NCBI GenBank assembly: GCA_023664625.1
Contig: JAMPFD010000003.1
Span: 106,384-170,383 of the forward strand
DNA length: 64,000 nt
Source: Bacillota bacterium
Lineage (GTDB): Bacteria > Bacteroidota > Bacteroidia > Bacteroidales > Bacteroidaceae
Direction: 5' to 3'
Both the position numbers and the translations under genes were made by a program. Position 1 is the first letter of the stretch; the number at the start of each line of letters is the position of its first letter. Below are positions 36,862-45,231 of the stretch, piece by piece. Under the pieces are notes generated by a model, which worked only from the letters and a program-made list of their open reading frames with translations, searched no databases and was not told the origin of the DNA.

Positions 36862-37791
36862 TTATATTCTTACATCATAAAAATTGGGCAAGTATTTATA
36901 ATACTTTTTATAACGCTCAATTTCATCTTTTTCTATAATAGAATTGTCAACAAAGTAACTCTCCCTTTCATTTAAATTTAATATTTGATTTAATGCACTA
37001 GCCTCTCTATATGTTAGATTGGGAATGTCAACCTCATAAGGTTCATCTGTATTAATGAAATCAAGATTCCAAATGTTGAGAGTCTTTTCATCAAAAGTTT
37101 CATGCAATACGATACCTCCAAACGTATACATTCGCGCTCCTCTATATTCTTCATAAACAAGGTTAAACAATGTCTGAAATTTTAATTTTGATGTTTCTGT
37201 TTTATTCCTATCTGAAATCACATTTGCACAATCGGCCTCAAGCATCTTCTTTATTGTTGTTGGTGCCTTAGTATTACAACAGCAATCGTTTTCTAATCCA
37301 AGTGGGACTAAGTTCCCGAATAATGCCGATAAATCTGCTAAGGAATAGGGGATTTTTTCCTTTCTCAATTGCCTATTGCATGACATTAAGTAGATGCTTC
37401 CATGAGGTATCTTCATCATAACTTGCTCTAAATCCCTAAAAACATCCATAGTTAGGCATCCATCATAATCCAACCATATTATACTTGATTTAGACAAATC
37501 TATAGAAGACAACATGTTTGATGAATCACCACACAAAATCTTTATGCAGGAATATGGTTTATTAAATTCAAGCTTTTGTTCATTATATCCGCCTTCAATA
37601 CTATACATAGTATTAATATGGAGTTCTCTATGAAATAATTTGAAATCGGTGAATGCTAATCCTCCAAAACCAATATACTGATAATTTACATTAAATCGTG
37701 GTATGATACGCATAAATGCAGATAATAACATTCGGCGTTCTACAAATTTACATGGGCGTATCTCATAATTTAAATTGGTTGGACTTTTCAT
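36862..37791 (-). CDS. Hypothetical protein, last gene of the defense-like operon
   Basis: 309 aa, AT-rich like the rest of the operon, with a 4-nt overlap to the upstream GHKL gene. Contains a DCCCNTK triple-Cys and a possible glycine-rich stretch (YIGFGGLAFTD). No confident domain. Confidence 0.55.
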   Translation of the reverse strand: MKSPTNLNYEIRPCKFVERRMLLSAFMRIIPRFNVNYQYIGFGGLAFTDFKLFHRELHINTMYSIEGGYNEQKLEFNKPYSCIKILCGDSSNMLSSIDLSKSSIIWLDYDGCLTMDVFRDLEQVMMKIPHGSIYLMSCNRQLRKEKIPYSLADLSALFGNLVPLGLENDCCCNTKAPTTIKKMLEADCANVISDRNKTETSKLKFQTLFNLVYEEYRGARMYTFGGIVLHETFDEKTLNIWNLDFINTDEPYEVDIPNLTYREASALNQILNLNERESYFVDNSIIEKDEIERYKKYYKYLPNFYDVRI

Positions 37792-39152
37792 TCTTCGATA
37801 CCCTCCATTTTAGTATAATAATCAAATGTTGTACTTCCTAGCTCTTTATAACTACTAGCATCGGCATACGTTTTGGCAATATCTGCGATTTTTTTGTTCG
37901 CATCATAGGATATACGCACAGTATTTTTCTTTTGAGAAATTATATCCTCATCCAACTCTGGTGGTAAAAAAAACCTCTGATTATGTGAAATACCATTCTG
38001 AACAAATTGCATTGATTTCAATTCAACAGCAGAATATTTAATCATATTTTCACATAAGGATTGGCGATAACTATTTGCTTCATCTCCCATCTTTGTTACT
38101 TGACGAAGGAAATCAATAACATAAAGCATAGCTTCTTTCATATATGGGAGCGCAGCTTTATACACATCGGAAGTCGTGTCAACTCCTTTTTTAGTAGTAG
38201 TTAAAGGCAGGTTGAATGTTTCTTCTGAATCAAAATATACTATGCCTCTAAACATGACAAGATCAGGATGCCATTTTCTAACAGAGGAAGTACCCCATCC
38301 GGTTATAGAAGATTGCTCTGCTTCTACAACTAATCTGTCATTACAATATATATACCATCCAGATTTTTTAGGTTCTCCTATATCACCTAGACCTGCGATT
38401 ATCCTATATGAAACATCATTCAATCTACCATCCAAATAGTATGGTTGACAAGTCTGAGAAAGCAACAACTCAACTCTTTCCCCTTCAAGGATAGAATTAT
38501 TAAGCGTAATTTTCAATCCTTTTAAAAGGCTAAAATTCAGTAAACGTTGAATATCGTTTGCTAAGCTGCTAATGAAGCGACTATCCGAAAATAAATCTTT
38601 AACTTCTTCATTAAGATGGGTGACCTTTATAAATGTTCCGTCGGAACTTAAATTTTGATTGTCATCAACATCGCTGTAAATAAAACTCCAGTCATCAATT
38701 TCTGTAGTTACGTTATCTTCAAGAGTAACAATTTGCTTTTTATGTTCCCATCTTTCAACATCAACATCAACTTTAAAATGATCATACTTACATTTGGTTT
38801 CAATAGCAAAGATCTTTCCAATTTTAAACAAAGATCTTTTCATTCCAATACCGAAACGTCCAACAGTATTATTATGCATTCTTGGTGCATTGTCTGGTCG
38901 GCCAAATCTAAAAGCATATTTCTGAGCTGTTTCAAGTGAGAAACCGCCACAATTATCTCTGATAATAAATTCATTACCATTTACAGTCAAATCTATATAA
39001 AGATTTGAATAATCATTTTGATTAATTCGATTGGCACCATCAATTGAATTATCTAATAAATCAATAATGGCATCTTCTATTGAGATATCTCGAGTTATCA
39101 TCTCAATGAAAAACTTTTTTGTAGGATTACCTTCAATTATATTAATAGTCAT
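37788..39152 (-). CDS. GHKL-superfamily ATPase (MORC/paraMORC-like, HATPase_c_3)
   Basis: 454 aa with N-box IDLLDNSIDGA, G1 box IIRDNCGGF (DxGxG) and G2 box GRFGIGMKRSLF. Lies 14 nt downstream of the Mrr-like gene. Confidence 0.75.
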   Translation of the reverse strand: MTINIIEGNPTKKFFIEMITRDISIEDAIIDLLDNSIDGANRINQNDYSNLYIDLTVNGNEFIIRDNCGGFSLETAQKYAFRFGRPDNAPRMHNNTVGRFGIGMKRSLFKIGKIFAIETKCKYDHFKVDVDVERWEHKKQIVTLEDNVTTEIDDWSFIYSDVDDNQNLSSDGTFIKVTHLNEEVKDLFSDSRFISSLANDIQRLLNFSLLKGLKITLNNSILEGERVELLLSQTCQPYYLDGRLNDVSYRIIAGLGDIGEPKKSGWYIYCNDRLVVEAEQSSITGWGTSSVRKWHPDLVMFRGIVYFDSEETFNLPLTTTKKGVDTTSDVYKAALPYMKEAMLYVIDFLRQVTKMGDEANSYRQSLCENMIKYSAVELKSMQFVQNGISHNQRFFLPPELDEDIISQKKNTVRISYDANKKIADIAKTYADASSYKELGSTTFDYYTKMEGIEE

Positions 39153-39165
39153 TTTTCTTTTCTAT

Positions 39166-43642: not shown

Positions 43643-44979
43643 GATTTCTTTTTATTTACAAATTCCTCTAAACGAGACTCAATTTCTGTTTTCAAGCCAC
43701 GGCGTCGCTGCATGAGTGACTTGCTTTTCTGAAGCATAAGAAGTTGCTCTATCAATTCACCTTCTTCAAGGTTCTCTTGGCAAATTTCTTTCATCAAATC
43801 TGCTTCCAATTTGTTTTTTATCTTGCCCTCTTCCATATTTAATGAGGAATTATAGATTTTGTTATATATTTCTGATACTTGATGTGCAAAGTTAAAATCT
43901 CGATACCAATTCACTTGAATTGCAATCAATTCTTGATCTGTAATGAGTTTTATTTCAGGATTATATTGTTGCAATTCATGTTGAACATTTAACAGTCCTT
44001 CCAACATTTTCGCTCTATATGTGAAAGTGTAGGATCCCATATCGTTCACGGCTCTTCTTCCATCCCGTCGCAACGGGAACCGATTCTCAATGATATTCCG
44101 TTCTTGATCCAGTTTTAACCTAAAATCATAAAGCGGTTGCATCCATTCTCGCCCATTTTTTATAAGCGAACGCATGGACTTATCATCCTTCACAACAGTA
44201 CAAGTCCAACAACCGAAACGACTTTGACCACAAGAACCATGACTTTTGTCTGTTACAACGGTTGGACATTCGTAATCGTCCGCACTCGCATCAACATAAA
44301 TGTTAAACAGGATTTTGTTATCAAATCCCCAAGGAGATGGAATGGTATTTATTATGTACCAGACTTCTTCTAACATCAATTCTTTGATTGGTGCATAGAC
44401 ATATGTATTTGTCAACAGAGTATGATTGGTAAGTCGCTTGCCATGAATTTCATGTTTCTTGATGGAACGAGCGCGAGTTGCACTTTCAGCCTTTCTTGTT
44501 CCTATTAAAATTATAGCTTCCCCACACTCGTCAACTTGTTCAATTATAAAACGAGCAGTAGGTTTAATTTTCATTTTCTCTGTACACCATCTAAATGCTG
44601 TGTTCGGGACAGGATAACCTTTCCCGATAACATTCACCCAAAATGAATCTTCCAATCGAGGCGTAGTCTTCCGGACAAAAATAGGCAAATCTTCTTCTCT
44701 CGCTTTTTTTTCTATCTGTTCAAGAACTTGATCAACATACGATGCAATTATAGGATTTTCAACCATTGTATCATTACATACTACATATATTGGTCTACGA
44801 AGTTGAAATGGCCCCGGTAGTTCTTTTAATTTTTCGAGCGCAATCCATACAAGCATTAATAATACTGTTGAATCTTTTCCTCCACTGAATCCTATAATCC
44901 ATGGTCGGGTTGATTCATCAGCATACGCATACTGGTCAAGAATTTCATCTATTATATATTCAATACGTTTATTCCTCAT
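43639..44979 (-). CDS. dndC: DndC-like PP-loop ATP pyrophosphatase (PAPS reductase fold) with a Cys cluster
   Basis: 446 aa with the PP-loop IIGFSGGKDSTVLL and the cysteine cluster CPTVVTDKSHGSCGQSRFGCWTCT, typical of the DndC/SspD Fe-S site. Confidence 0.75.
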   Translation of the reverse strand: MRNKRIEYIIDEILDQYAYADESTRPWIIGFSGGKDSTVLLMLVWIALEKLKELPGPFQLRRPIYVVCNDTMVENPIIASYVDQVLEQIEKKAREEDLPIFVRKTTPRLEDSFWVNVIGKGYPVPNTAFRWCTEKMKIKPTARFIIEQVDECGEAIILIGTRKAESATRARSIKKHEIHGKRLTNHTLLTNTYVYAPIKELMLEEVWYIINTIPSPWGFDNKILFNIYVDASADDYECPTVVTDKSHGSCGQSRFGCWTCTVVKDDKSMRSLIKNGREWMQPLYDFRLKLDQERNIIENRFPLRRDGRRAVNDMGSYTFTYRAKMLEGLLNVQHELQQYNPEIKLITDQELIAIQVNWYRDFNFAHQVSEIYNKIYNSSLNMEEGKIKNKLEADLMKEICQENLEEGELIEQLLMLQKSKSLMQRRRGLKTEIESRLEEFVNKKKS

Positions 44980-45018
44980 TTCGGATTTTTATCATAAATC
45001 AGACATTTGATTTATAGG

Positions 45019-45231
45019 TTAAAAAGTTTTAAAGTCTTTATTCACTAAATCGGTCAATTCGACATCTAATAGGTGTGATATTTTAATTAGGGTTTCAATA
45101 TCTGGCTGAGAACTATTTGTACACCATTTTGAAACGGTGGATGGGTTGACATTTAATTGCTCACACAACCACTTATTTGTTCTCTTCTTCTCCGCTAAAA
45201 CAACTTTCAGACGATTTATATCTGTTTCCAT
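45019..45231 (-). CDS. XRE-family HTH transcriptional regulator (controller-like), first gene of the operon
   Basis: 70 aa. LAEKKRTNKWLCEQLNVNPSTVSKWCTNSSQPDIETLIKISHLLDVELTDLV is a Cro/C1-type HTH. Lies 40 nt upstream of the dndC-like gene. Confidence 0.7.
   Translation of the reverse strand: METDINRLKVVLAEKKRTNKWLCEQLNVNPSTVSKWCTNSSQPDIETLIKISHLLDVELTDLVNKDFKTF

Follow-up and report, generated by a model that had tools for sequence, protein, structure and literature searches.

What do the genes that follow a phosphorothioate (PT) modification core contribute when they match none of the restriction modules recognised as partners of such cores? The question is raised by a seven-gene operon on the minus strand at positions 36862-45231 of a 64,000-nt stretch of contig JAMPFD010000003.1 from a gut Bacteroidales genome (positions 106,384 to 170,383; this whole stretch is called the window below). 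The operon carries Dnd-type modification genes followed by genes for an Mrr-type nuclease, a GHKL ATPase and a protein of Pfam family PF20553 (Methyltransf_35, MT35). We read it, with moderate confidence, as a two-part defence unit of restriction-modification (R-M) type, in which the Dnd proteins form the modification side and the Mrr, GHKL and PF20553 proteins the effector side. The Dnd core itself is known; the apparently new part is the conserved pair of a paraMORC-like ATPase and a PF20553 protein, which is probably a new restriction-type partner of modification genes.

The operon had been described from the sequence as seven minus-strand open reading frames (ORFs) with overlaps or gaps of at most 40 nt, and an ORF listing bore this out. 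The order on the minus strand is an XRE/Cro-type helix-turn-helix (HTH) protein (45231-45019), DndC (44979-43639), DndD (43642-41528), a DndE domain fused to a HerA/FtsK-type ATPase (DndE::HerA, 41538-39958), Mrr (39957-39166), GHKL (39152-37788) and PF20553 (37791-36862). A 39-nt gap separates the XRE gene from dndC; dndC and dndD overlap by 4 nt, and dndD and dndE::herA by 11 nt. The mrr gene follows dndE::herA with a 0-nt gap (6 nt if an ATG start is used), the GHKL gene follows mrr after 13 nt, and the GHKL and PF20553 genes overlap by 4 nt. The arrangement is not a chance one, as the whole operon or parts of it recur on many independent contigs.

The last two genes of the operon encode a MORC-like ATPase and a methyltransferase fold

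The final protein (309 aa) was taken as unknown in the sequence-only reading, which does not stand: a 305-bit match to PF20553 ('Methyltransf_35, putative O-methyltransferase') covers its full length. The other domain calls of that reading (HTH_3, DndC, DndD, DndE plus ATPase, Mrr_cat and HATPase_c_3) were confirmed. The PF20553 protein adopts a class I S-adenosylmethionine (SAM) methyltransferase fold, seven-stranded and Rossmann-like, with a motif I GxG (G41xG43), an acidic residue after β2 and a motif IV at the end of β4; E66 and W106-L-D-Y-D110 are likewise conserved, and the SAM-binding motifs are kept throughout 77 PF20553 sequences. 'O-methyltransferase' is a database name only, and structure comparison shows a resemblance to base N-methyltransferases of nucleic acids. 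The family comprises 1,874 representatives at 50% identity, almost all of them standalone proteins of ∼310 to 340 aa. Literature and database searches found no characterised member, and PADLOC v2 holds no model for the protein. An assignment to a known Dnd-associated methyltransferase or to a TcmP-type family was considered and rejected, NCBIfam giving no match.

The GHKL protein (454 aa, HATPase_c_3) is MORC-like, putatively of paraMORC type, with Bergerat-fold motifs I to III, an S5 transducer domain that retains the conserved basic residue, and a helical C-terminal extension. Its closest structures are MORC3, SMCHD1 and MORC2, and in PADLOC v2 it has only a negligible match to MzaB. Profile searches of PDB sequences with either protein detected no solved relative. 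A search for E. coli or plasmid models gave no E. coli match and one unannotated match, on S. meliloti pSymA.

The pair is obligate and stands beside modification genes of more than one chemistry

A search with the PF20553 alignment against one genome per species gave 79 loci, retrieved by MT35 alone (individual loci are given by L numbers). They belong to Bacteroidota, Campylobacterota, Bacillota, Cyanobacteriota, Chloroflexota, Acidobacteriota, Verrucomicrobiota, Actinomycetota and Alpha-, Beta- and Gammaproteobacteria. A GHKL ORF lies immediately upstream of the PF20553 gene in every one of the 79; the codon for the conserved Tyr9 of PF20553 falls a median of 26 nt past the GHKL stop. The distance matrices of the two proteins are correlated at r = 0.86, a value reached in 0 of 999 Mantel permutations.

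A DNA-modification gene was found within 10 kb of the pair in 72 loci, often on the same strand and overlapping or at near-zero spacing. The neighbours are Dnd or Dnd and Pbe genes in ∼39 loci (an 18-bit PbeA match in L081 was discounted as spurious) and a C5 cytosine methylase (Dcm), usually abutting the pair, in ∼30. By phmmer census more than half of the Dcm-linked loci also have Vsr (a first blastp clustering gave 13), and in four an HNH gene lies nearby. Seven loci have no modification neighbour, four of these being truncated contigs. PT-linked members and those linked to 5-methylcytosine (5mC) are interleaved in a neighbour-joining tree of PF20553, which points to repeated partner switching. 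The coupling of the downstream genes with the Dnd core, as first proposed, is backed by conservation over phyla. The idea that they are tied to PT proved too narrow, because the conserved GHKL-PF20553 core is found just as often with Dcm cytosine methylases.

Three of the 72 loci carry, as their modification gene, one for a solo PAPS-reductase/PP-loop protein of 337 to 345 aa, closest to BrxP/SspD, whose gene overlaps the GHKL start (L048 7703-8716, L065 299-1315 and L068 7679-8716, from Lachnospiraceae and Clostridium metagenome-assembled genomes (MAGs)); they have no DndD or DndE, and the protein may represent a third kind of partner for the pair. Two loci have a PF20553 gene broken into two ORFs (L085 9995-11115, Sulfurovaceae MAG; L094 10043-10927, Albidovulum MAG), with GHKL and the adjoining modification gene apparently intact; either the effector side has been inactivated or the assembly could be at fault.

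Among the PT-linked loci, a DndC-DndD-DndE::HerA-GHKL-PF20553 order of five genes that lacks XRE and Mrr occurs in Bacteroidota, Acidobacteriota, Verrucomicrobiota, Binatia and Actinomycetota and spans at least five phyla at 28 to 50% protein identity. In other diverged homologues the pair stands at the 3' end of a DndC-DndD-DndE::HerA-Mrr operon, of a DndD-DndE-PbeA-SP-PbeC-PbeD-Mrr operon, or of a form of this Pbe operon in which a 163-aa protein replaces Mrr. PbeABCD is present in related loci L011-L017 and L019-L037 (PbeA at 797 bits).

The slot directly upstream of GHKL varies: it holds HARE-HTH-Mrr (∼11 loci, all of Bacteroidales type), HARE-HTH-SIR2, a giant DndH-like protein, the 163-aa protein, or nothing. 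Interchangeable effectors of this kind are the pattern expected of defence systems. The SIR2 case, from an Anaerobacillus MAG (L092 7332-8621), joins a weak HARE-HTH-like N-terminus (17.3 bits, cut-off 25.9) to SIR2_2 (68.8 bits) beside divergent dndCDE genes; the same reader-like domain appears to be joined to an NADase-type effector instead of Mrr. In a Paenibacillus (L039 3350-8587) and a Clostridiales MAG (L045 3497-8695) a DndH-like protein of ∼1,745 aa with a HerA domain is encoded directly upstream of GHKL-PF20553, again with divergent dndCDE, so that the pair is able to coexist with a DndH-type protein.

We assign the pair to the restriction side because it is nearly always beside a protective modification enzyme of either chemistry, because it holds the position of the restriction gene in Dcm/Vsr loci, because it attracts interchangeable effector genes, and because MORC/paraMORC ATPases, which are found alongside Dcm, Vsr, HNH proteins and restriction endonucleases (REases), were long ago predicted to take part in R-M systems (Iyer, Abhiman & Aravind 2008, PMC2292703). 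An alternative is that GHKL and PF20553 form a second modification or epigenetic module, in which a MORC-like clamp aids DNA methylation and Mrr is the sole restriction component, possibly of type IV. The intact SAM motifs of PF20553 and its likeness to base N-methyltransferases would fit such a role, as would the lack of a nuclease in most loci; the best PADLOC matches of Mrr_cat include type IV methyl-directed enzymes, and there are known cases of CxC/Dnd cores that have taken up methylases instead of PT enzymes (PMC10853773). A protective methylase would, however, look redundant beside the near-constant Dcm or Dnd, the pair occupies the usual place of the restriction gene in Dcm-GHKL-MT35 triads, and MORC/paraMORC ATPases are otherwise tied to the restriction side. 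We therefore consider a second modification module distinctly unlikely.

The upstream genes belong to the Dnd family

DndC (446 aa) is a PP-loop/PAPS-reductase-like sulfurtransferase that scores 422 bits against TIGR03183 (cut-off 290.4) and 472 bits against the PADLOC DndC model, with intact SGGKDS (residue 32) and Cys-cluster (C238/C250/C257xxC260) motifs. DndD (704 aa, TIGR03185) is a coiled-coil ABC ATPase with Walker A GNNGFGKT, signature SMGE and Walker B VFIDS. In DndE::HerA (526 aa) the N-terminal DndE domain, a double ribbon-helix-helix (RHH) (PF08870, 67 bits at a cut-off of 25, residues 5 to 108), is followed by AAA_10, FtsK and HerA_C matches, with Walker A GKSGSGKT at residue 193 and Walker B VLMIDE at residue 407; residues 145 to 505 are closest to the C-terminal ATPase motor of DndH (PADLOC, 94 bits). 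The fused DndE is, by its sequence, a divergent DndE of the kind described by Rakesh, Aravind & Krishnan (NAR 2024, PMC10853773), who found that some PT systems carry a fusion of DndE with a 'clade-3' HerA/FtsK ATPase beside a DndD-type ATPase.

The three proteins had been placed in the Dnd family and not with BREX or Ssp, and this was sustained: TIGR or Pfam cut-offs were passed and cross-matches were weak (DndC to BrxP, 47 bits, and to SspD, 40 bits). The PADLOC v2 scan of the operon found no other Ssp or BREX components (SspB/C/E, BrxC, PglZ, BrxL). The top PADLOC match of DndD, PDLC02742 (713 bits), is labelled PbeC, an identity that was rejected, as PDLC02742 is a DndD-position model: it gives 1583 bits on Parabacteroides goldsteinii DndD, it is the top match for ABC ATPases between DndC and DndE, and genuine second (Pbe) ATPases match other models. 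A C.C regular expression meant to split DndD from the CxC clade was not used, the pattern being missing even in Pbe-operon positive controls. PDLC03333, a PADLOC-DB v2 model labelled 'Type II methyltransferase', matches DndC at 313 bits, and both labels could mislead automated Pbe or R-M calls.

The absence of dndA and dndB, also noted from the sequence, was confirmed by the lack of aminotransferase-V and PF14072 matches among the scanned element ORFs of at least 90 aa. It had been taken to mark a minimal module that borrows a host desulfurase; it is in fact the ordinary state, DndA being missing in ∼68% and DndB in ∼49% of Dnd-bearing taxa (PMC10853773). The downstream genes, as first judged, match none of DndFGH, PbeABCD or SspE, PADLOC v2 returning no DndF, DndG, PbeA, PbeB, PbeD or SspE in the operon.

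Mrr is an exchangeable component, and a putative regulator gene and an AlbA_2 gene flank the operon core

The Mrr protein (263 aa if translation begins at a TTG, 261 aa if it begins at the ATG at 39951) is a restriction endonuclease of PD-(D/E)xK type that carries a HARE-HTH-like domain at its N-terminus; its Mrr_cat domain (PF04471) scores 92 bits, with the motif D154...Q175-C-K177, and its PADLOC matches are PDC-S02 and a type IV mREase. The gene is missing from many GHKL-PF20553 loci, and Mrr may be an accessory effector. A HARE-HTH-fused REase is often found directly downstream of dnd genes and has been proposed to be the true restriction enzyme (PMC10853773). A sulfur-binding domain was sought in the Mrr N-terminus by BLASTP against the 163-aa protein, which had been weakly flagged as DNA-SBD_ScoMcrA; no match was obtained, and the DNA-SBD_ScoMcrA match of the 163-aa protein did not reappear in our own hmmscan.

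The XRE/Cro-type protein at the head of the operon (70 aa, HTH_3) is a putative controller. Its gene lies outside the conserved core, being missing in the otherwise equivalent chromosomal operon of L009 and L010. A scan for promoters and terminators gave no excess over shuffled expectation and was ill-suited to Bacteroidales promoters. Downstream of the PF20553 gene, after a 114-nt gap, an AlbA_2 gene (35371-36747, minus strand) encodes a 458-aa protein with SLFN_AlbA_2, HATPase_c_4 and a DeoR-type HTH; it is swapped along with the Mrr/GHKL/PF20553 cassette, and its standing as an eighth member of the operon or system is uncertain. Related AlbA_2 genes lie 3' of PF20553 in several other Bacteroidales loci (L022, L023, L031 and L037).

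The same Dnd core carries two alternative downstream cassettes

Many contigs encode an identical DndE::HerA protein, and one or the other of two cassettes follows it. The commoner, cassette A, encodes DndB, an AlbA_2/Fic_C protein and, ahead of them, a putative membrane protein of 139 aa; the rarer, that of the window, encodes Mrr, GHKL, PF20553 and the AlbA_2/DeoR-HTH protein. The window is 96% identical in nucleotide sequence to cassette-A elements over 45312-39962, from the XRE gene to the dndE::herA stop, has no similarity to them over 39961-35133, and becomes similar again at 35132. Cluster sizes are in keeping with this: at 90% identity, DndC, DndD and DndE::HerA form clusters of ∼1,400 to 1,600 members each, against 152 for Mrr, 48 for GHKL and 35 for PF20553.

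Cassette A lies at ∼11596-14924 in L001, L002, L003, L005, L007 and L008. Its 139-aa protein has weak matches to membrane proteins, its DndB (PF14072, 402 aa) sits downstream and not upstream of dndCDE, and its third gene encodes an AlbA_2/HATPase_c_4/Fic-like_C protein. In a Xylanibacter operon (L023) the sequence is 90% identical to window positions 45292-38815, through Mrr into the 5' part of GHKL, past which the genes belong to a different GHKL-PF20553 lineage with PF20553 only 57% identical; by comparison of the two sequences, a recombination breakpoint appears to lie within the GHKL gene.

The exchange of cassettes bears on the possibility that two unrelated systems merely share a defence island or cargo hotspot, one an orphan Dnd module with an epigenetic or redox use or an unlinked restriction partner, the other a PT-independent Mrr/GHKL/PF20553 system. 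The region between the dndE::herA stop and 35133 is indeed a discrete, swappable cassette, and the sister elements keep the Dnd core at high identity beside a membrane protein, DndB and another AlbA_2 gene. GHKL-MT35 is found also without Dnd genes, and frequent decoupling of Dnd modification from neighbouring restriction modules has been stressed (PMC10853773). Co-residence does not readily explain, however, why a modification gene adjoins the pair in 72 of the 79 loci, often overlapping it on the same strand, and it is hard to reconcile with the order DndC-DndD-DndE::HerA-GHKL-MT35 in at least five diverged phyla; within the window, moreover, every operon junction is 39 nt or less. We judge a shared hotspot improbable.

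Proposed mechanism and its weighing

In the mechanism that we propose for the two-part defence unit, DndC, as a PP-loop, Fe-S sulfurtransferase, would take sulfur from a host cysteine desulfurase, DndD and the double-RHH domain of DndE would scan DNA and choose sites, and the fused HerA/FtsK motor would probably provide translocation. Host DNA would gain PT marks. That the three proteins write PT is suggested by analogy with Bacteroidales isolates carrying dndCD, which contain GpsA/GpsT by liquid chromatography-mass spectrometry (PMC12914056).

On the other side, GHKL and PF20553 would form an obligate complex, with the MORC-like ATPase as an ATP-driven DNA clamp and the SAM-binding subunit engaging target sites that lack the cognate self mark, PT here and 5mC in the Dcm-linked relatives. 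On unmarked DNA the complex may block the DNA directly or license an accessory effector, which in this operon would be the Mrr-type endonuclease, cleaving. This scheme is modelled on DndI, in which PT sensing controls an ATPase-nickase (PMC11662687), and on SspE; in both, sensing of PT modulates an NTPase and frees the protein from self DNA. It is modelled also on BREX and DndH for a methyltransferase fold in target engagement; it is plausible by analogy with these systems.

Several observations weigh against the two-part defence unit. Most GHKL-PF20553 loci are without a recognisable nuclease, so that cleavage-type restriction is not the general role of the pair. A module that uses PT or 5mC as its self mark needs a reader, and none is evident in either protein. 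The same Dnd core, at 96% identity, is joined to a DndB cassette in sister elements, which indicates that the core is independent of Mrr, GHKL and MT35. The profile scores include some near or below threshold: DndD exceeds the TIGR03185 cut-off only marginally (249.9 against 245.85 bits), DndE::HerA falls under that of the DndE equivalog TIGR03184 (39.7 against 71.85 bits), and the HARE-HTH domain of Mrr, at 22.8 to 24.7 bits, is just short of the Pfam cut-off of 25.9.

The scarcity of nucleases implies that the effector is the methyltransferase or a MORC-type entrapment of DNA, or else that the pair is not a restriction module. A more specific proposal is that GHKL and PF20553 are the core of a nuclease-independent restriction mechanism that works with unrelated self marks, PT or 5mC. 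The clamp would load an active methyltransferase on unmarked DNA, which would disable that DNA (e.g. by replication-blocking base or backbone methylation) or flag it for HARE-HTH-Mrr or HARE-HTH-SIR2. We offer this tentatively and consider it unlikely.

The low DndE and DndD scores also bear on whether the core makes phosphorothioate at all. DndC, DndD and DndE::HerA could instead carry out another modification, or be part of a DndH-like machine that captures and restricts invader DNA with the HerA/FtsK motor. The ATPase half of the fusion is indeed most like the C-terminal motor of the restriction protein DndH, and PT was not seen in ∼10 gut isolates that have dndCD or sspBCD (PMC12914056). 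DndC, however, lies far above its equivalog cut-off with catalytic motifs intact, the gene order is canonical, DndE-HerA/FtsK fusions have been placed in PT-modification systems (PMC10853773), and PT was present in most of the tested Bacteroidales dndCD isolates (PMC12914056); a core that makes no PT is highly improbable. All three alternatives are ranked below the two-part defence unit.

The operon is cargo of an integrative mobilizable element

A location on a mobile element had been suspected from the sequence, and the bracketing repeats and element genes bear it out. The operon is carried by a ∼19.5-kb integrative mobilizable element integrated at a tRNA-Met gene (CAT anticodon; 26225-26299, plus strand, ARAGORN), whose 3' part is duplicated at the other end of the element. 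A repeat search identified direct repeats of 84 nt, 90% identical, at 26257-26340 (attL-type, overlapping the 3' end of the tRNA gene) and 45729-45812 (attR-type, a copy of that 3' end and a downstream hairpin). Just inside the element ends, there is a second pair of direct repeats of 45 nt (26349-26393 and 45592-45636, 84% identical), both with the motif TGCGTAAACAA TGCGTAAACAA in tandem; they are candidate arm-binding sites of the integrase or an excisionase.

The element backbone (26900-35130, plus strand; families by Pfam) encodes, in order, a tyrosine integrase (26900-28402), DUF6043 and DUF3853 proteins, a VapE-type primase (30158-31543), two ORFs without an assigned family, a NikA-like protein (32941-33339), a MOB relaxase (33355-34563) and a 180-aa ORF. 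It is 90 to 93% identical in nucleotide sequence to elements L001 and L003, and 16.5 kb of the window is identical to contig JAMPGM010000003.1 of a Bacteroidales MAG (GCA_023664025.1). The GC content is 0.33 to 0.38 along the operon and 0.49 to 0.57 in the host flanks. Assemblies assigned to Bacteroidota and to Bacillota contain near-identical copies of the element or operon (L023, Xylanibacter rodentium, and L040, an Oscillospiraceae MAG; L004, a Bacteroidales MAG, and L006, with a protein named Clostridium sp.), which points either to faulty metagenome binning or to very recent transfer between phyla. The version of the pair in the window travels on a small mobilizable element widespread in gut Bacteroidales, and this bears on the movement of phages and plasmids in the microbiome.

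Comparison with known systems

The combination of genes had been thought undescribed, and this holds in part. The DndE::HerA fusion, the missing DndA and DndB and the downstream HARE-HTH-REase were all described in 2024 (PMC10853773), and NCBI PGAP already names DndC, DndD, a 'DndE family protein', a restriction endonuclease, an ATP-binding protein and an O-methyltransferase. An exact match to a named defence system, which had been set out as a refuting outcome, was not found in PADLOC v2. A GHKL, MORC or PF20553-type methyltransferase partner does not appear in the main text of PMC10853773 or in the part of its supplement that was available, a 2025 review of PT restriction branches does not mention a GHKL/MORC and methyltransferase pair, and literature searches on PF20553, Methyltransf_35 and GHKL/MORC with phosphorothioate returned nothing relevant. 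In its recurrent association with PT and 5mC modification systems, the pair therefore appears to be undescribed in the searchable literature and PADLOC v2.

The recognised PT restriction partners number four or five (DndFGH/SspFGH, SspE, DndI and PbeABCD), DndFGH is usually decoupled from the modification genes (PMC10853773), and most Dnd-bearing genomes are without an assigned restriction component. The MORC-like ATPase and methyltransferase-fold protein are a concrete candidate for the missing partner: they end Dnd and Dnd-Pbe operons in many phyla and elsewhere replace the restriction gene beside Dcm/Vsr. As the core of the pair is without a nuclease, it may work differently from classical restriction, and it provides a simple bacterial setting in which to consider the action of MORC-type ATPases on epigenetically marked DNA.

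The closest known relatives of the operon are the DndBCDE and DndCDE systems with DndE-HerA/FtsK (PMC10853773), with which it shares the C-D-E order, the fusion beside a DndD-type ATPase, the lack of DndA and the downstream HARE-HTH-REase. It differs from them in being without DndB, which the sister cassette has, in the small XRE gene in front and in the added GHKL and PF20553 genes. With DndFGH/SspFGH, SspE, DndI and PbeABCD the downstream module shares its position by PT genes, an NTPase and a presumed use of PT as the self mark in defence. By sequence, no member of the module belongs to these partner families; the one likeness is that of the ATPase in the DndE fusion to DndH, which combines an (inactive) methyltransferase fold, an REase and a HerA/FtsK motor; the window has similar parts in separate proteins. 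Unlike these partners, its ATPase is of GHKL/MORC type and not P-loop, its methyltransferase fold keeps the SAM motifs, and GHKL-PF20553 also pairs with 5mC methylases and can share an operon with PbeABCD.

With the MORC/paraMORC ATPases of R-M systems (PMC2292703) and with MZA (MzaB), the pair has in common the GHKL and S5 architecture, a neighbourhood of Dcm, Vsr, HNH and REase genes and a patchy, lateral distribution. In its logic it comes near to BREX and other nuclease-poor, methyltransferase-dependent defences, which likewise set a SAM-binding subunit and one or more ATPases, with no obligatory nuclease, beside a self-marking modification. The components are not homologous to those of BREX, and whereas the BREX methyltransferase writes the self mark, here a separate Dnd or Dcm enzyme is present.

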